Source of the DNA: Escherichia phage vB_vPM_PD114
Length of the DNA: 64,000 nt
Sequence record: MH675927.1
Direction: 5' to 3' (one strand)
Both the position numbers and the translations under genes were made by a program. The notes beneath the pieces are model-generated. The model had not been told where the DNA came from, did no database searches, and worked only from the letters and a program-made list of their open reading frames with translations. Position 1 is the first letter of the stretch. Every line of letters starts with the position of its first letter. Below, piece after piece: positions 1,750 through 17,522 of this stretch.

Positions 1750-4163
1750 TGGCGAATTTTCCAACATATCCTGCTACGACACTAGAACAAGGTGTTGATC
1801 TGGTTATATTCTCGTCTAACCAGATGCATGATGTTATTAACGGGGATGCTACAGCAACTGTAGAAACCGAAACAGGTTTAATACCTACACTGCGTAAAGC
1901 ACTTGTTGATAACTTCTTCTTTAAGAGTCCTGTTGCTTGGTCAGCAGGATCAACTGAAACTGTATTTAACCAGTTACGTTATTTTGAAAACGGCATCTTG
2001 AGTGGGTACTACTATGCCCCATCTGCCACTACTGCGAACCCTGTACCTATGCAGGGTACACCTGTAGGAGACAGTAACTGGACTCTGTACGCTCTTAAAA
2101 CTGAACAGTTAGCTTCAGATGTGTATCCTTGGTATTTTAAAGGTGCTACAGGATATGAAACAGAAATCAGTCCTCCTTATATCTTTGATAATGCTATTGT
2201 CACCATTAACGGTGTAATTCAGATTCAAGGTGAAGCATTTACTATCAAAGATAGTAAAATTATTCTGGCAGAACCATTAGGTTTAGATCCGTCTACTGGT
2301 CTACCTAACAAATTGTTTGCTTTTATTGGTAAAACAACAGCCTCTACTTCTTATGTAGAGAAAAACCTTTTGTCATCTACCACTGGTGCAGCAATGGTTG
2401 GTCTTCCATCTGGAGGCAACCTGTTACAAGCTCAATACTTTGTAACGCCTGAACAGTTTGGTGCAATTGGTGATGGAGTTACCGATGATACTCAAGCAAT
2501 TCTAAAAACCATTACTTTCGCTAACACGAATAACATTCAAGTACGTGCAGATAAGAATTATAGATTCACAAGCTCAATTGCTATGTCTGGTATTCGTTGG
2601 TATGGTGGTACATTCACTGGTAACGGTGGAACAATGATTTCTACTGTGTCCTGTTGGATTGAAAACGTTCGCTTTGAAAAATGTTATGTTAAGATGTTAG
2701 GTGGTGATTGTCGATTCTATCGTAATATCTTCTCCAACGCAACATCTACAGCAGCATTTTTAATGCAAGCAATGACAAGTGAAGGTACGTTGGACTTCAG
2801 TTACAACGAAATGTATGGTTGTAAATATGCGATCCTGCAACAAGGTACTGGAGAAGTAATGACCTATGGGCGTTACTCTAACAACTACATTCACGATATC
2901 AAAGGTGATGCTATTGAACTTAACGTAGTTCAAAGACACTACACTGAAGGTTTGATCATCGAGAATAACCACATTGCTAACGTAGATGCTTCTGGACAAG
3001 GTGCAAACTGGGGTATTGGTATTGGTGTAGCAGGTAGTGGCCCATATGGTGTTGATGCTCCTGATTCACAATATGTACGTAACTTCAGTATCGTTGGAAA
3101 TAGGGTTTACAATTGCCGTCAATGTCTACACGTTGAAATGGGTAAAAACTTCACAATACGTGATAACGAAGTTTATCCTAACACAGCAGTTTCAACAGGT
3201 ACAGGTTTAACTACTTGTGGTGTTGCATTATACGGATGCCAAGACTTTGAAGTTGATGGTTTAACTGGTTATCTGCTTAATGATCCGTCTGTTTCAACAC
3301 GCATGGTCTTTATTGACTGGGGTGTTAACGGTGGAAGATATGCGGGGCCACCAATTAACTTTACAATTAAGAATTTGGATATTCCAGAATCTTCGATTGA
3401 GATTGCAACTGCTGGATCAGACGACTGGGAAAACTCTACAATTGTTAGTAACATCAATTGTAATGATTTTAAATGGCGTGGGCTACCATCTAGCTCTACT
3501 TTTAATAATATTCGTTGCCGTAGTATTGACTTTATTGGTCAACACGGAAGCGGAGAAGGAAGTGGTGGCGGTTTCTATGCTCGCAGCCAATTCACGTATA
3601 TGAAGTGGGTAGGATGTACAGCACTTAGCGGAGATGAAACAACAGTTTCTTTTGCTAAAATCTACACGGATCGTTGCGATCAGGTTGGAAATAACTTTGG
3701 TGTTCCAACTGCTGTTGATGGTACAGGTCATCGTGGGCCAGTCTTAACCACTATTTCTGAACAATATTTTACAGATTATGATGAATTCCCAGGTGGGCGT
3801 GACTTCCCTACTGGAACAGTTATTCATTGTGCAAGCGGTAAAAAACACGTTGTTACAGCAGGTGGTGCTTTCTTTAGTGATAATGAGAAAATAAAAGCAA
3901 CTGTTACAGGTCAAACCTATCTACAGTCTAATGCTTTAAACTGGGCTAGTAATGGCTACGCTAAAGCAGCAGGTACTAAGATTGTTATTCCAGGTGCAGG
4001 AGCAAATGGTGGCGATCTTGTGACAACTATAGCACGTGCTACATATGTGACAAATAGTTTGTACACAATAGATATTGCAGATCCAATTGTAACACCTACA
4101 GCAGAGAATACACAAATTAAAGCTCTGAACCCTGTTACTTTTGTTACTGTCAATAATGCTTAA
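1749..4163 (+). CDS. tailspike / tail fiber protein with right-handed beta-helix (pectin-lyase-like) domain, possible depolymerase
   Basis: 804-aa ORF; repeated Asn/Gly-rich beta-helix rungs (NNHIANVDASGQG, VGNRVYNCRQCLHVEMGKNFTIRDNEVY); ATG overlaps upstream stop. Confidence 0.6.
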   Translation: MANFPTYPATTLEQGVDLVIFSSNQMHDVINGDATATVETETGLIPTLRKALVDNFFFKSPVAWSAGSTETVFNQLRYFENGILSGYYYAPSATTANPVPMQGTPVGDSNWTLYALKTEQLASDVYPWYFKGATGYETEISPPYIFDNAIVTINGVIQIQGEAFTIKDSKIILAEPLGLDPSTGLPNKLFAFIGKTTASTSYVEKNLLSSTTGAAMVGLPSGGNLLQAQYFVTPEQFGAIGDGVTDDTQAILKTITFANTNNIQVRADKNYRFTSSIAMSGIRWYGGTFTGNGGTMISTVSCWIENVRFEKCYVKMLGGDCRFYRNIFSNATSTAAFLMQAMTSEGTLDFSYNEMYGCKYAILQQGTGEVMTYGRYSNNYIHDIKGDAIELNVVQRHYTEGLIIENNHIANVDASGQGANWGIGIGVAGSGPYGVDAPDSQYVRNFSIVGNRVYNCRQCLHVEMGKNFTIRDNEVYPNTAVSTGTGLTTCGVALYGCQDFEVDGLTGYLLNDPSVSTRMVFIDWGVNGGRYAGPPINFTIKNLDIPESSIEIATAGSDDWENSTIVSNINCNDFKWRGLPSSSTFNNIRCRSIDFIGQHGSGEGSGGGFYARSQFTYMKWVGCTALSGDETTVSFAKIYTDRCDQVGNNFGVPTAVDGTGHRGPVLTTISEQYFTDYDEFPGGRDFPTGTVIHCASGKKHVVTAGGAFFSDNEKIKATVTGQTYLQSNALNWASNGYAKAAGTKIVIPGAGANGGDLVTTIARATYVTNSLYTIDIADPIVTPTAENTQIKALNPVTFVTVNNA

Positions 4164-11314: not shown

Positions 11315-11911
11315 CTATCGTTTCCACTCTTTGTGTTGTTCTACATGCTCAAGCATTTCATTATATAGTGCTTTAAGATGTGGAACAACTCTTTCATCTT
11401 CAGTTTCAAAGAATTTTGTAAGCTGCTCTGCCTTAGCTTTCAACCAGCAAAGATGCGCTTCAATTTCAGTATTAAAACGTCCCAGCGTTTTCATGCGACT
11501 GCCTACTTTTATGTTGGCTTTATACTTTTTACGATCTTTCTCGTAACTACAGCCTACCATAGTCCCATGAGATCTTTTACTTACTCTATAAGCTAAGAAC
11601 TTATTAAGATCTCCTGTTACTAAAAGACAGGTATCGGGAGAGTAAACTCTCCCTCCTATAATATCTTTATCAAGTTCTAAGTTTTCCCAGTTATCCCAAG
11701 TTTGCAACCAGGAATAGAAATTGGAGAACAACTTCCATTCTTCACAAACCGTCACCCCCTTATAACAAGGATCACGTTCTTGTTGACAAGGGGAGTAACA
11801 CCTCCCCAACATAGCCATCCATTTCATATAATGCGGCGTTAGTTTCTTACTACCAGGTAGTGTACTCTCGCCTTCCAAATCATTAATACCTTCACTATAC
11901 ACGGTAAGCAT
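11315..11911 (-). CDS. putative homing endonuclease-like protein with AP2-type DNA-binding domain
   Basis: N-terminal WMAMLGRCYSP...YKGVTVCEEW block typical of phage HNH/AP2 endonuclease families; C-terminal YEKDRKKYKANIKVGSRMKTLGRFNTEIEA is AP2-like; adjacent to the DNA polymerase gene. Confidence 0.5.
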   Translation of the reverse strand: MLTVYSEGINDLEGESTLPGSKKLTPHYMKWMAMLGRCYSPCQQERDPCYKGVTVCEEWKLFSNFYSWLQTWDNWENLELDKDIIGGRVYSPDTCLLVTGDLNKFLAYRVSKRSHGTMVGCSYEKDRKKYKANIKVGSRMKTLGRFNTEIEAHLCWLKAKAEQLTKFFETEDERVVPHLKALYNEMLEHVEQHKEWKR

Positions 11912-11938: not shown

Positions 11939-14900
11939 TCAGTGACAAGTTGACCATGAACTACCAACATCGTAACCAGCAGTTAGAGGTACATTAAGAT
12001 TGTAATACTCACCAGCTTTATTAACAGCGATAGATGCTAATTCTCCAGCACGACTGTAGGCTGTAAACCAACCACCTTTCGGAGATTCATGTACGTTAGC
12101 CCAAATCTTGCCAGTACGTTTCTCTTCCTCTTCTTTCCAGGTATTAACTTTATCCAAACATTCTTTATCAATTTTCTTTTGTTCTTCTGGATCATCAACT
12201 TGAGTCCAACCTAAAGATTCTTTAGAGAACCATTTAAAATGCACGAGATCACGAGTTACTTCAAGCTGTGCTTCATCGTGATATGCAATCATTTGTTGAA
12301 CGAATGACTTATTTTTCCAGTCATCAACAAAAAAGTCAACAGCTAATCCTTCTTCTTCGATAAGATCGTCGTAGATAACCATTGCTCTTTTTGCACAAAT
12401 AACACCACCACTCTGGAACAGAGAGTTAAGTATTGCGTGTGCAGATCGTGTAGGTACTTTCCTACCATCAATACCAAGAATGTATTTCTTACCTGTTTTA
12501 ACCCAAAAATCATGCAGACGTTCTTTAAGAAGTGCAAGAGGTTTTGCAGCTTCCCAGAAAGCATCGTATACAAGCTGTCCTGTATACATATCACTACCAA
12601 TAGTTTTTGCTACTTTTGCAGCTTGAGCACCATAAGTAATACCATACTTAACAGATTTAGCAGGGCTTCGTTCAAACTTACGACCAATAGTGTCAGAAAT
12701 ACGTCGAGCCATCATTGTATGAACATCATTAGGTTTTTCCAACAATAGAGCATTACAATATTCGTGTGGTTCCTGCTCGTACCGCCAACAATTCCCTGTA
12801 ATCGTGATGCAGTCTTTCTGACGCATAACCCATGTACCGAGTTCTGTTTGTGGACACCAAACATCTTCTACACCCCATTCTTCAATAGTCAGACTTTGAA
12901 CAGGGATGTGAGAGCGGTTAGCCAACGTTGCCACTTTTACTTTCTGGTCTTTCGTATTGAAGGCTACAGAAATATTACCCCCATGAACCAGGTATGAGGC
13001 AGTTAAGGCTGCTTCAAAAAGTTCTCCTGGGTTCTGCGCCCAGCGCCAAACAGGTTTTTGTTTATGTTTGTGCCAGTAACCATCCGCAATCAAAAAACCT
13101 TCCAAGAAAGCCACACGCTCGGCATGAGACATATTAACTACACGTTCTACCCACGGAACATCCCATTTACCTTGTTGAACAGAAGTTAAACTATTTACTT
13201 GATCTTGTTCCATGTTAAATGGAGCATTACAAATAATGTTATCTCCTGTGCAAAGCTCGGCAGTTGTTCTGACTTTAGGCACATAAGTATTCCCTGTACT
13301 ACGAGTATTAACATACCAACGGTGATCTGCTGTTGCACGATAAGTATGGGATTTTCCTTTAATCTCAAACGTCTTACTATTTTTATAGAAGACCTTACCT
13401 TTTACTTTAGTCCATTCTTTAAGTCCTGTTTCTGGGTTATATCCTAAGATTTCATCCCCTTCTTGTAGATCGTGATAACCAACCCAACCTTTACGGGTTA
13501 GTGCTTGTGCATCCATAGGTACACAGTAATGTGATTCTATTTTTGCCTCAAGAGAATCAAAGTCATAACCAATTTGGAAGTATTTTGGAACTTCTACACC
13601 AAATAAGTTACGCATTTCATATCCGTACAGAGATGTTACACGTGGGATGTTTGCTACTAACCTATGTTTCATACGAGACGTAGCTGCATCGCACGTTGCA
13701 GCAGGGGTTGGTATACGACCATCAGCCCTTACTGCCGCCAGATAACCTTTATCGTAATCCTCTTCATCCTCTTCCCAATCAGCGCCACCCCCTAGAATAG
13801 AGTTCCTACGATGTTTATACGTAAGATACTGCACAATCTGCGTAGCATAAGGAAACTTTTCACCTAGTGCTTCCAAGTTAGGACAAATATCCTTCTCTTG
13901 CCCTTTTGTAAAGGAAGGGTTAGTAAGCACTTTAACACCACGGCCTTTAGCTTTAGCAATACGATCTCTTAGTTTCCATTCCAAAGTTTCTGGTGTGCAC
14001 TCCAGATGATCACATCTATCCTGGCAGAAGTTAGATGCTAACGTTTGATCAACATAGTCACGAATAGCTTTCTCCATTTGTGCTTCATCTTTCTTAATCT
14101 TAGTGCCAGATTTAAGAGTGATATCTTTATCTTTATATTCAGATGGACTCCAACCTAAACCAACTAACCAATTTTTAATATGTGTAGTGTCGTCTAAAGT
14201 AGCAGGTACTGTAGGATCACAAATAGGTTCTTCTGCTGGAATAGGTAGTTTAAACTCCTTACCTAATGCAAATAACCACCAACCATCTTCTTTTTGTACA
14301 AGTTCACCAGAATGTTTCTCTGCAAACTTTATCATGTTACTTGAAGGTTCACCATTCTTTTTAAACTGTAGTTTAGGTGGAATGAATGATTTCAAATAAC
14401 CTTTAGTAGCAGGTTTAGGAGGTAGTACAGGTTCTGCCTCTAAACGACATGCTTCCATTCGAGCATCCAGATCACGAATATTATCTTCTGCTTGTTTCAT
14501 ATTGAAAGCAAAGCCACGGTGCTCTTGACGTGTAATAATATCAGCTACACGTTGTTCTAAGTTAAATGGTTCAGACCACTTATTATAATCACCCCACTCT
14601 TCCATCAAATAACGGAACACTGCGGTGTTAGCTTTGTTATCGTAAATACAGTAATACAGCATATCTGCTGCAAATGTTCTAAATCTTTCAGTTTCAGGGA
14701 TGTTTTTTCTAAAATCAATTTTAACATCCCCTCCAGCTTTCTTAGATAACTCTGCCAGACTATGACCACCGAAGCGATCAGGGTTTAGTGTCTTACTTAA
14801 GATCATAGTATCACAAATTTCAATGTTACTATTACCCCAAGTATTGTACTTAATACTGTAGTTGAGTTTAAAAAATAATTTAATTGCCAGTAAGTCGAAG

Positions 14901-15253
14901 TTAATGATGTTGTGTCCAACTACTTTGGTAATTTTATAGTTTGAATTACCTTTAAATTTACCTGTTCCATTTACAAAATCAGGAAAATCTTTAAGAGGGA
15001 AATGGGTATATTCTAAATGCTCATATTCCTCCAGTCGGTATTCATACTTTCCGTCAGTCTCAATATACGGACGACCATCGAAAAGATATTTATCACCATC
15101 ATGGAAAGCAATAATCTCTCCAGTATCATGACTTTCGCACACAATACAGTGCATTGCAAAACTATCTTTTAAACGATATGGACTTGCCAAGTAATCTACA
15201 CTTTCGTCATTAAGCAAGTTGTTACTTTCAATGTCGAAAGTAAAAGCTCCCAT
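11939..15253 (-). CDS. DNA polymerase, family A (T7 gp5-like), with 3-prime-5-prime exonuclease domain; contains an intein
   Basis: N-terminal exo motifs (FDIES, HCIVCESHD, GGHSLAEL) and C-terminal motifs (KSVKYGITYG, GIDGRKVPTRSAHAILNSLFQSGGVICAK, AYHDEAQLEV) colinear with T7-type polymerases; RBS AGGAGGGAGA. Confidence 0.9.
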   Translation of the reverse strand: MGAFTFDIESNNLLNDESVDYLASPYRLKDSFAMHCIVCESHDTGEIIAFHDGDKYLFDGRPYIETDGKYEYRLEEYEHLEYTHFPLKDFPDFVNGTGKFKGNSNYKITKVVGHNIINFDLLAIKLFFKLNYSIKYNTWGNSNIEICDTMILSKTLNPDRFGGHSLAELSKKAGGDVKIDFRKNIPETERFRTFAADMLYYCIYDNKANTAVFRYLMEEWGDYNKWSEPFNLEQRVADIITRQEHRGFAFNMKQAEDNIRDLDARMEACRLEAEPVLPPKPATKGYLKSFIPPKLQFKKNGEPSSNMIKFAEKHSGELVQKEDGWWLFALGKEFKLPIPAEEPICDPTVPATLDDTTHIKNWLVGLGWSPSEYKDKDITLKSGTKIKKDEAQMEKAIRDYVDQTLASNFCQDRCDHLECTPETLEWKLRDRIAKAKGRGVKVLTNPSFTKGQEKDICPNLEALGEKFPYATQIVQYLTYKHRRNSILGGGADWEEDEEDYDKGYLAAVRADGRIPTPAATCDAATSRMKHRLVANIPRVTSLYGYEMRNLFGVEVPKYFQIGYDFDSLEAKIESHYCVPMDAQALTRKGWVGYHDLQEGDEILGYNPETGLKEWTKVKGKVFYKNSKTFEIKGKSHTYRATADHRWYVNTRSTGNTYVPKVRTTAELCTGDNIICNAPFNMEQDQVNSLTSVQQGKWDVPWVERVVNMSHAERVAFLEGFLIADGYWHKHKQKPVWRWAQNPGELFEAALTASYLVHGGNISVAFNTKDQKVKVATLANRSHIPVQSLTIEEWGVEDVWCPQTELGTWVMRQKDCITITGNCWRYEQEPHEYCNALLLEKPNDVHTMMARRISDTIGRKFERSPAKSVKYGITYGAQAAKVAKTIGSDMYTGQLVYDAFWEAAKPLALLKERLHDFWVKTGKKYILGIDGRKVPTRSAHAILNSLFQSGGVICAKRAMVIYDDLIEEEGLAVDFFVDDWKNKSFVQQMIAYHDEAQLEVTRDLVHFKWFSKESLGWTQVDDPEEQKKIDKECLDKVNTWKEEEEKRTGKIWANVHESPKGGWFTAYSRAGELASIAVNKAGEYYNLNVPLTAGYDVGSSWSTCH
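12791..13525 (-). mobile_element. intein inserted after polymerase motif A (about 245 codons, LAGLIDADG-type endonuclease motif)
   Basis: In-frame block CVPMDAQALT...ITITGN followed by Cys; contains VAFLEGFLIADGYW; flanking extein ...LEAKIESHY|CWRYEQEPHEY... is contiguous relative to T7-type polymerases; terminal dipeptide is GN rather than HN. Confidence 0.7.
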
Positions 15254-15343: not shown

Positions 15344-15739
15344 TTATTTATTGTCAGCACTTAATTGTACTTTAATAAGGCAATTAGGGACACCATTGGT
15401 ATTTCTCAAGCCTACACGTTCAATTTTAACTGTTCCTGTTAAGCCACTAAAAGTGGAAACAATGTTATTAATGTTTTCATCCTTACTGGCGATATCAAGA
15501 ACAACTTTATCACTAACATTTTTCAGCATACGATCTACAAGCTCTCCCACAAAACCACTGGTAGTTTGAATGAGAAGGTATAGGCAACCATCCTCAAACC
15601 ACAAATGTTCGCCATAAGCATAACCGTATGGTTCTAACTCCGATCCATCTTGAAATTTAAACTTGGCAATAGTTTTCGTATAATCATACCCTAACGCAGA
15701 AGGGGATACCCCATAAAGGATATTTTCGTTGTCTTTCAT
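15344..15739 (-). CDS. hypothetical protein
   Basis: Start trimmed to ATG 15739 (RBS AAGGAGAGAAAT), just downstream of the primase-helicase stop; the longer track ORF would overlap the primase. Confidence 0.45.
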   Translation of the reverse strand: MKDNENILYGVSPSALGYDYTKTIAKFKFQDGSELEPYGYAYGEHLWFEDGCLYLLIQTTSGFVGELVDRMLKNVSDKVVLDIASKDENINNIVSTFSGLTGTVKIERVGLRNTNGVPNCLIKVQLSADNK

Positions 15740-15749
15740 ATTTCTCTCC

Positions 15750-17522
15750 TTAATAAGAACCATCAGGAATATTCTCTGGGTTACTTGTGTATTGATCGTA
15801 ATCGTGAAGTGTAGCTGTTTTAATCTCATAGAAGAAACTACCTGCTGCACCAGTCTCTGAGAACTCACGGTTCTTTAGGATGTAGCAATATGTGCGGTTA
15901 CGTTCCATAGGATCTTCAGCTTGTTTATCACGCTCCAGCGCAATTGTGATACCAGCACCTTTAGCAAGGAAGCTACTACCCATTGCATCATCTTCTACAA
16001 TATGTTCATTACTATTGTTAGAAGACTTTTTAACGTGTGAAATTACAACAATGGTAATTGCGTACTCTTTCATAATGCGTTTGAGCCACGTCGCAAGTTC
16101 CTCTTGTTGTGACACGTCCATACCAGAAAGCAAGTCAGAATAAGGGTCGATAACAAGAATGGTTACTCCGAAATAAATAATCATTTCCAGAACCTTCTCT
16201 TTAATCACATCTACGTTAGCTCCACGATCATCACAAACATAGAAACGTGGTGTTCCATCTTCTCGTTCGTAAAAATCCCGAATCTTTTCTTCATTATCTT
16301 TTAAAATCTTTTCCTTCTCTTCTTTTGTTTTACGGTGAAGAGGGATGTGTAAGAATGAAGACAGTAAGTTACGAGAATACTTCTTATACGTTGCCTCCAA
16401 AGATAAAATACCAAGAGTATGTTCTGGGTGTGCAAGAATAATGTGCTTCGTAATCTCGTTAACCAACAGTGTTTTACCGATACTTGTTTTTGCAAGTATA
16501 ACAGTAATTTCTTCTTCTACCAAACCTCCACCTAACATATTAGAAGCAACACGCATGAATGGAGGAAGGGTGATCATTTTAGCTTCCAGGCATTCCAAGG
16601 CTGCTTCATACAGTACGTTAGAAGCATAAACACCAGCAGGTGTGTACAGTTTAGCTTTGAAAAAGCGATCAAGAAAATGATCAATTTTTCCTTCTACTAG
16701 TGCCTGGTTAGGATCTTTAACATCTGTTAGTTCCATCACGTAAACTTTATTACGTGGTAAGATTTTAACACATTTCTCAACTGCTGCACGTCCAGCTTCA
16801 TCATTATCCATACACAGAACAATCTTTTTAAATTGATCTAAGAATTTATAACGATGTTGAAGCTGCTTATGCAGAGATGTTTCGCCACAAGTACCAGACA
16901 CTACAGCAGGAACAGGATATTTACCGCCCTTGTTATAATCTTTTAGCATCTGTGTTGCAGCCAGCATATCGTGTTCACCACCAACGATTAGAATAGTACC
17001 ACTGTGGTTACGATATTTAAACTCCCCAAAAAGATCACAATCCTTTCCTGTTTCACCGATAGGATGCGAAAAATCTTTTGGATCGATACGTTGTTTATAC
17101 CCAGCAATATTGTAATCTTTAGTTGTAGGGTATAATGTTGAAATTACTTCGCCAGTAGCTTCATCGTACATATAGCGTACACCGAAAGGTTTAGAGATAT
17201 CTTCACGAATACCGCGATAACCTTTTGGATTAGTTCCAGTGCTGGCTTTTAGTTTATCATGTACTTCTGGATTAAACTCACTACCCAAGATATCCTCCTC
17301 TTCAATTTCTTCGCCGTGTGCATTTAACCATTTTTGATCAGGGATAGTAAAGCCACAAGAAAAACAATGTGCGCCTCGATGGTCTTCATCGGCATCTAAG
17401 CCATATACCATCAAATTGTTTTGTGATCGATCACGCCCTCCTTTCATACAACGAGGACACCCAGTATGTCCTTCTTGACTTAGATCAATGTTATACCCAT
17501 ATTTATTTACAACATAAGACAC
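15750..17522 (-). CDS. DNA primase-helicase (T7 gp4-like: Zn-ribbon, TOPRIM, DnaB-type helicase)
   Basis: N-terminal CPRC...CFSCG zinc ribbon, central TOPRIM-like region, Walker A ILAKTSIGKT and Walker B-like ILVIDPYSD; GTG start with AGGAGA RBS. Confidence 0.85.
   Translation of the reverse strand: MSYVVNKYGYNIDLSQEGHTGCPRCMKGGRDRSQNNLMVYGLDADEDHRGAHCFSCGFTIPDQKWLNAHGEEIEEEDILGSEFNPEVHDKLKASTGTNPKGYRGIREDISKPFGVRYMYDEATGEVISTLYPTTKDYNIAGYKQRIDPKDFSHPIGETGKDCDLFGEFKYRNHSGTILIVGGEHDMLAATQMLKDYNKGGKYPVPAVVSGTCGETSLHKQLQHRYKFLDQFKKIVLCMDNDEAGRAAVEKCVKILPRNKVYVMELTDVKDPNQALVEGKIDHFLDRFFKAKLYTPAGVYASNVLYEAALECLEAKMITLPPFMRVASNMLGGGLVEEEITVILAKTSIGKTLLVNEITKHIILAHPEHTLGILSLEATYKKYSRNLLSSFLHIPLHRKTKEEKEKILKDNEEKIRDFYEREDGTPRFYVCDDRGANVDVIKEKVLEMIIYFGVTILVIDPYSDLLSGMDVSQQEELATWLKRIMKEYAITIVVISHVKKSSNNSNEHIVEDDAMGSSFLAKGAGITIALERDKQAEDPMERNRTYCYILKNREFSETGAAGSFFYEIKTATLHDYDQYTSNPENIPDGSY

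Follow-up and report, generated by a model that had tools for sequence, protein, structure and literature searches.

The family A (T7-type) DNA polymerase gene of Escherichia phage vB_vPM_PD114 poses the question of whether a 245-codon insert in its coding sequence, predicted from the DNA letters alone to be an intein with an atypical C-terminus, is a working and mobile element or a decaying one. The stretch of record MH675927.1 that was analysed (64,000 nucleotides (nt), referred to as the window) comes from a phi92-like myophage of the genus Justusliebigvirus, subfamily Stephanstirmvirinae, and its polymerase gene is 99.5% identical to that of Escherichia phage SD2 and 99.0% identical to that of phi92. 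We conclude that the insert is a genuine intein that is intact and has moved recently. It is probably a splicing-competent element of the replicative polymerase of this coliphage, for which we propose a class 1 splicing route and a dimeric homing nuclease.

The gene occupies positions 11939..15253 on the minus strand, as do all features of the precursor given below, and was assigned from the list of open reading frames (ORFs), a Pfam DNA_pol_A match and the SD2 homologue. It encodes a precursor of 1104 amino acids (aa). The N-extein (aa 1-576; 13526..15253) ends with motif A plus eight residues (...GYDFDSLEAKIESHY), and this end aligns with motif A of T7 polymerase, DASGLELRCLAHF. The intein, 245 aa (735 nt) from Cys1 to Gly244-Asn245 (ORF residues 577-821; 12791..13525), starts with CVPMDAQALT straight after the N-extein and ends with ...CITITGN. 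The next codon, TGT (12788..12790), specifies Cys+1, the first C-extein residue and second nucleophile, and is kept in intein-less alleles. The C-extein (aa 822-1104 plus stop; 11939..12790) contains motif B (KSVKYGITYGAQ).

A comparison with related phages delimited the insert. Out of 121 related records, 33 span the whole polymerase gene, and many others cover 78% of it (2580 of 3315 nt). VEcB and seven other Justusliebigvirus alleles, with flanks approximately 99% identical to those of the window gene, are without exactly 735 nt and read ...KIESHY/CWRYEQ... (the slash marks the insertion point), with the TGT codon at the junction. The intein-less protein gives a single contiguous Pfam DNA_pol_A match (residues 498-757); the match of the window protein is confined to the part after the insert. 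The intein-less protein also shows an uninterrupted alignment to T7 DNA polymerase, in which ESHY/CWRY lies opposite LAHF/MARF of T7. The insertion point is eight residues past motif A, and the insert splits the catalytic palm between motifs A and B. The original prediction had given the coordinates and the quoted sequences of the 245-codon insert exactly, and its placement of the insert directly after motif A of a T7-type polymerase is borne out by the T7 alignment. The alignment to intein-free polymerases that it had proposed as a check revealed the exact 735-nt indel between nearly identical genes.

Cys1, Asn245 and Cys+1, the junction residues of an intein, are all present, and four splicing blocks were located. 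Block A (intein aa 1-14, CVPMDAQALTRKGW; 13484..13525) starts with Cys1 as the N-terminal nucleophile and contains conserved L9, T10, G13 and W14. Block B (aa 59-72; 13310..13351) carries the T-x-x-H motif, Thr65 (B:7) and His68 (B:10), and Trp70 (B:12). In block F (aa 219-236, VEDVWCPQTELGTWVMRQ; 12818..12871), an invariant Cys224 replaces the usual Asp at F:4. Block G (aa 239-245, CITITGN; 12791..12811) is made up of Thr243 (G:5), Gly244 (G:6, usually His) and Asn245 (G:7) together with the residues before them; in this numbering the terminal Asn counts as G:7 and the residue before it as G:6 (PMC2807308). An AlphaFold2 (AF2) model of the intein, obtained with a 29-sequence family alignment as input, has a predicted local distance difference test score (pLDDT) of 94.5 and a predicted template modelling score (pTM) of 0.91, and the predicted fold is that of HINT domains. 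A profile of the intein family matches inteins in the PDB (Spl DnaX, 3e-7; NrdJ-1, 6e-6; AceL NrdHF, 6e-5). The indel, the junction residues and the predicted HINT fold support the original claim that the insert is an intein. The polymerase gene carries it in at least 34 isolated phages (Stephanstirmvirinae records); from the viability of these isolates we infer protein splicing of the precursor, as it implies that the intein would be removed efficiently.

Searched exhaustively with HMMER, 1.84 billion cluster representatives gave 2255 proteins at E <= 1e-3, 78 of them at E <= 1e-30. The family is visible by this search; a word-indexed homologue search gave only nine proteins. The best 150 of the 2255 proteins yielded 160 related inteins. 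All 160 begin with Cys, 159 end with Gly-Asn (the remaining one with Ser-Asn), and the +1 residue is Ser (73 cases), Thr (45) or Cys (42). By length, 122 are 225-270 aa, 33 exceed 290 aa (32 of them are 292-374 aa) and five have 210 aa or fewer, four of the five being mini-inteins of 138-163 aa. Conservation was computed over 123 cluster representatives of the 225-270 aa class, which are 30-52% identical to the window intein: His68, Cys224, Thr243 and Asn245 are conserved in 100%, Thr65, Trp70 and Gly244 in 99%, Trp223 in 97% and Trp232 in 88%. The family signature is Cys1, T-x-x-H-x-W in block B, V-W-C in block F, T-G-N in block G, and Ser, Thr or Cys at +1. Most members reside in family A polymerases, mostly of phages, at conserved sites that include motif B (AKTFIYA/TLYGAG), a TGR.../SPN site and others, and three members share the site of the window intein (..HY/T(Y/W)(K/R)Y). 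We conclude that this family of inteins is large and largely uncharacterised. Several metagenomic proteins contain two inteins of the family each: P0031 (288-545 and 567-809), P0044, P0047, P0056 and P0075.

Nine intein-plus and eight intein-minus Justusliebigvirus alleles were compared for signs of mobility. The inteins of the window, SD2, phi92, PD06 and PaulScherrer (haplotype A) are identical (0/735 nt differences), and their exteins differ at 16-44 of 2580 nt. Haplotype B, found in cardinal, UAB_1, ESCO32 and OZ035773, lies 31-38 nt from haplotype A yet is closer (23-30 nt) to the Phapecoctavirus ESCO5 intein; the OZ035773 and ESCO32 inteins are A/B mosaics. The window and ESCO5 share 91.7% identity in the intein, but 72.4% and 79.1% in the exteins. 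As to co-conversion tracts, polymerase identity to ESCO5 is a little higher beside the intein (83-85%); the same segments are the most conserved parts of the polymerase, with 79-81% identity to KP13-16. Intein-plus and intein-minus alleles are interleaved by extein similarity, PD06 lying near VEcB, ESCO9 and W22, ESCO32 near alia, and SD2 near EC.P2. Because an identical allele is found in diverged exteins and haplotype B resembles the intein of another genus, we conclude that the intein has spread horizontally in the recent past. The distribution is the pattern expected of a horizontally moving element, which by itself is no proof of endonuclease-driven homing. The original prediction had missed both the presence/absence polymorphism of the intein and its exchange among phages.

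The window intein differs from haplotype B by 35 synonymous and 3 non-synonymous codon differences, and from the ESCO5 intein by 52 and 6, respectively. The ratio of non-synonymous (dN) to synonymous (dS) substitutions calculated by the Nei-Gojobori method was about 0.02 over the full intein and 0.03-0.04 within its LAGLIDADG domain. In a comparison with the more distant KP13-16, at which synonymous sites are saturated, dN was lowest in the LAGLIDADG domain (0.041), intermediate in the two splicing parts (0.063 and 0.084) and highest in the linker (0.39). The intein is under purifying selection, with the nuclease domain as constrained as the splicing domain.

These data bear on the penultimate residue, which the original prediction correctly identified as Gly in place of the typical, though not obligatory, His, and which it took for a sign of decay or of variant chemistry. 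The closest characterised relative, albeit a distant one, is the mycobacteriophage Bethlehem RDF (gp51) intein, with which the family profile aligns end to end in hhalign (Prob 96.5%, E 9.5e-10). It shares with the window intein Cys1, T-x-x-H, a ...VWC... 21 residues before the end and a ...TGN/S terminus (...EVWC...HLTGN/S). Experiments on this class 1 intein showed complete splicing, slower splicing after a G316H substitution, and an active, toxic endonuclease (Kelley et al. 2016, PMC5050341). Some inteins are known to do without the penultimate His (PMC5050341; Chen et al. 2000, as cited in PMC4031507). Since Gly-Asn is the family norm and the Bethlehem RDF intein splices with Gly at this position, the decay or variant-chemistry reading of Gly244 is unsupported, and a dN/dS of about 0.02 speaks against it as well. 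We conclude that the Gly-Asn end is the rule in this family and no sign of decay. The Bethlehem RDF intein differs from that of the window in length (317 aa), in having two LAGLIDADG domains and Val at B:12, and in its host protein and phage group, with about 19% identity between the two.

The LAGLIDADG motif reported in the original prediction was confirmed; what had escaped notice is that there is one such domain, not the usual two. The domain comprises intein aa 125-205 (12911..13153) and has the alpha-beta-beta-alpha-beta-beta core topology in the AF2 model. Its motif, AFLEGFLIADG (aa 139-149; 13079..13111), ends the LAGLIDADG helix with an acidic residue and Gly (LEGFLIADG), Asp148 being the putative catalytic residue. 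The Pfam LAGLIDADG_3 match is weak and below threshold (E 0.084). Conservation resembles that of an active site: Asp/Glu148 (99%), Gly149 (99%), Gln164 (100%), Lys/Arg204 (75%) and a small residue at position 143 (100%). With Asp148, Gly149, Gln164 and Arg204, the active site of the window nuclease is intact-looking. In alignments with two-motif relatives (the 324-aa nieznany intein and the Bethlehem RDF intein), the window motif pairs with the second motif and the first domain falls in a gap. To our knowledge, characterised intein endonucleases are two-domain monomers. A single-motif LAGLIDADG intein nuclease was not found described in a literature search, which was limited and whose negative outcome is no proof of absence.

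The domain most likely acts as a dimer of two intein molecules, the simplest way for a one-domain nuclease to cut DNA. We infer that such a dimer would cut the intein-less polymerase allele in a mixed infection, and that repair would then copy the intein in (homing). Alternatively, the intein may splice and carry as its nuclease the dead half of a two-domain LAGLIDADG enzyme, spreading passively by general recombination. The presence of two domains in the nieznany and Bethlehem RDF inteins agrees with such a history, and mini-intein relatives of 138-163 aa demonstrate that the nuclease can be lost. In addition, the insertion target is not detectably palindromic: at best, five of nine positions are symmetric, a value reached by 7% of background windows. 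The substitution data are at odds with a dead remnant, as constraint on the LAGLIDADG domain equals that on the splicing domain, and so is the near-complete conservation (99-100%) of Asp/Glu148, Gly149 and Gln164 across the 123 representatives. The single-domain form is, moreover, the majority architecture (122/160 relatives), not a one-off deletion, and the identical intein allele occurs in diverged backgrounds. We therefore regard a dead nuclease as improbable.

Under the preferred reading, a class 1 intein with a dimeric nuclease, splicing would start with an N-S acyl shift at Cys1 aided by Thr65 and His68. Cys+1 would then take over the N-extein by trans-thioesterification, Asn245 would cyclise without a penultimate His, and an S-N shift would give ...ESHY-CWRYEQ..., identical to the protein that intein-less phages make without splicing. 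Cys224, which stands where block F normally has Asp, probably serves as an essential helper. A different role for this residue is suggested by class 3 inteins. Trp70 lies two residues after His68, Thr243 two residues before Asn245, and Cys224 21 residues before Asn245, a spacing at which 156 of the 160 relatives have a block F Cys. Class 3 inteins have an equal Cys-to-Asn spacing (Cys320/Asn341 in MP-Be, 118/139 in Msm DnaB-1, 124/145 in Mle DnaB), as in the literature (PMC2807308, PMC5222942). The "WCT" triplet of class 3 inteins is thus present as Trp70 (B:12), Cys224 (F:4) and Thr243 (G:5), with F:4 assigned by spacing and motif position, not by coordinates. In hhalign, His68 and Trp70 are opposite His65 and Trp67 of the class 3 MP-Be intein, with only the N-terminal half aligned. 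Because the PDB gave no match, even at E 10, to a profile built from blocks F and G at the C-terminal end, the equivalence of Cys224 with F:4 was set by spacing and hhalign.

In a class-3-like or hybrid reaction, the N-extein would be held on Cys224 as a branched thioester, formed by direct attack on the junction or by taking over from the Cys1 thioester, before its transfer to the +1 residue. We consider this quite unlikely. Class 3 inteins are defined first of all by the absence of a nucleophile at position 1, and Cys1, which they have lost, is invariant here (160/160). The Bethlehem RDF intein is ranked as class 1 (PMC5050341), and an F:4 Cys is known in class 1 inteins, too (PMC4031507, PMC3196547). 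The C-terminal blocks remained unaligned to MP-Be in hhalign, and the F:4 equivalence was taken from spacing and motif position, not from inspected coordinates. Because Cys1 is invariant and an F:4 Cys is known in class 1 inteins, class 1 chemistry is favoured, and a class 1 route with Cys224 as an essential helper is the most likely one on the conserved residues. That inteins joining Cys1, the complete class 3 Trp/Cys/Thr triplet, Gly at G:6 and a one-LAGLIDADG nuclease make up a large natural family is a tentative idea that we think has a modest chance of being right.

A free-standing nuclease could also have mobilised the intein in trans. An HNH homing-endonuclease-like gene (11315..11911, minus strand; PHROG 953, E 7e-73, no Pfam hit) lies 27 nt downstream of the polymerase stop. 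The HNH gene is polymorphic: it is present in the window, SD2 and PD06, a 588-nt variant is found in PaulScherrer and ESCO32, and it is absent in phi92, cardinal, UAB_1 and EC.P2. Phages phi92, cardinal and UAB_1 have the intein without the HNH gene, while the HNH gene occurs without the intein in VEcB, ESCO9, W22, PHB05, arall, alia and JohannJBalmer. Because the two assort independently, mobilisation in trans is disfavoured; we rejected it as highly improbable. Finally, the insert might be a lasting part of the polymerase, an accessory domain that is never spliced out, an outcome that the original prediction had named as refuting it. This reading is excluded for practical purposes, since the insert is absent from approximately 99% identical polymerases of viable phages, interrupts the catalytic palm between motifs A and B, and has a predicted HINT fold with all junction residues.

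Several observations weigh against our interpretation of the insert as a splicing and homing intein. The curated intein profiles that the original prediction had proposed as a check do not match the insert in Pfam, NCBIfam or PHROGs; a search of PDB sequences with the single window-intein sequence gave nothing significant, and two of 29 relatives reach Pfam Intein_splicing at E ~1e-3. Because the curated models miss the insert, it is counted among inteins by its fold, its termini and the family profiles. Ordinary recombination between phages in mixed infections, with no nuclease at work, could also have put identical intein alleles into different backgrounds. A splicing route other than class 1 would be compatible with the invariant Cys224, Trp70 and Thr243. 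No significant two-fold symmetry was found in the insertion-site DNA, which counts weakly against a symmetric homodimer. Lastly, no functional study of the window intein was found in the literature.

The insert is already annotated as an intein in GenBank and is thus no new discovery. The record of phage PaulScherrer (MZ501100; Bas60 of the BASEL collection) lists an "intein-containing DNA polymerase precursor" and an intein mat_peptide, and that of SD2 (PQ821640) uses the same product name. Both inteins are 100% identical to the window intein as proteins and occupy the same site of the orthologous polymerase. The BASEL paper states that inteins were found by comparative annotation (Maffei et al. 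2021, PMC8594841), and the SD2 paper covers the intein in one sentence (PMC11841896). The intein is annotated in these two of at least 34 Stephanstirmvirinae records that carry it. In phi92, PD06, UAB_1, ESCO5 and most other records the gene is named DNA polymerase or hypothetical protein; that most GenBank records simply say "DNA polymerase" follows from the failure of curated models to detect the insert. For the same reason, many polymerase genes of phages and metagenomes are probably mis-sized, and inteins of the window type are probably widely unannotated in them. A 2024 paper holds that inteins have not been reported from coliphages (PMC11162368), a statement that the coliphage records with an intein contradict. 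The PaulScherrer mat_peptide (3232..3966) is one codon off (VPMD...GNC, not CVPMD...GN), a shift made possible by TGT on both sides of the insert.

The window intein was compared with other known systems. With class 3 inteins (MP-Be "DnaB", Msm/Mch DnaB-1, AceL NrdHF) it shares Trp B:12, Cys F:4, Thr G:5, the spacing and good structural superposition; those inteins have no N-terminal nucleophile and keep His at G:6, whereas the window family has the invariant Cys1 and Gly at G:6. PI-SceI, PI-PfuI, PI-PkoII and the TliVMA intein likewise consist of a HINT domain with LAGLIDADG sequences between blocks B and F, and 219-229 residues superpose. They are monomers with two LAGLIDADG domains per chain, however, and the window intein has only the equivalent of the second. 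Homodimeric single-motif enzymes (I-CreI, I-MsoI and I-CeuI) are encoded in introns as free-standing proteins, and they have longer beta-hairpins and targets that are pseudo-palindromic; the window domain, in contrast, is embedded in an intein, and its target is without clear symmetry. The 324-aa intein of the Phapecoctavirus phages nieznany, ukendt, nepoznato and AV126 resides in the same gene within the same subfamily, is homologous to the window intein (32% identity) and has matching CVP...VFC...LTGN/C termini, but it lies 50 residues downstream, at motif B (KSVKYG/C...), and has two LAGLIDADG motifs.

As an intein in a phage polymerase, the element is ordinary. What remains of interest is the single LAGLIDADG domain and the active site that combines Cys1 with WCT; each is conserved in the family, both appear to be undescribed, and both can be tested in an E. 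coli phage system. Such a system is tractable, since E. coli K-12 supports growth of the phages, and both the intein-plus Bas60 and its intein-minus sister Bas62 (JohannJBalmer) are in the BASEL collection. It could serve as a model for whether a one-domain LAGLIDADG intein cuts DNA, and does so as a dimer; should it cut as a homodimer, it would, as far as we found, be the first intein-borne LAGLIDADG endonuclease of that kind. It could equally serve as a model for the speed at which an intein sweeps through a phage population, and for the role of the invariant block F Cys beside Cys1, which bears on the origin of class 3 inteins. In the argument of Beyer et al. (2020), class 1 inteins cannot have given rise to class 3 step by step, such a path being implausible (PMC7664689); a relay or hybrid splicing route, if true, would be of interest against this argument.

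Some minor observations were made along the way. The motif-B intein of nieznany (MN850598, 3501..4472) is unannotated in that record and in those of ukendt, nepoznato and AV126, and phages of this group have Thr instead of Cys at the site of the window intein (HYTWRYDN). The polymerase and motif-B intein match of the E. coli Phapecoctavirus phages, with the same 32.4% identity to the query, were also found in three 146-kb records assigned to "Campylobacter phage" A145, C3 and A110a (MG065645, MG065656 and MG065689), whose attribution to a Campylobacter host looks doubtful. Upstream of the window polymerase, an ORF at 15344..15868 (minus strand) overlaps the 3' end of a primase/helicase ORF (15750..17522, minus strand); in related records, the only gene annotated at this place is 396 nt long (phi92 gp160, "potential endonuclease/hydrolase"; PHROG 22634, function unknown).

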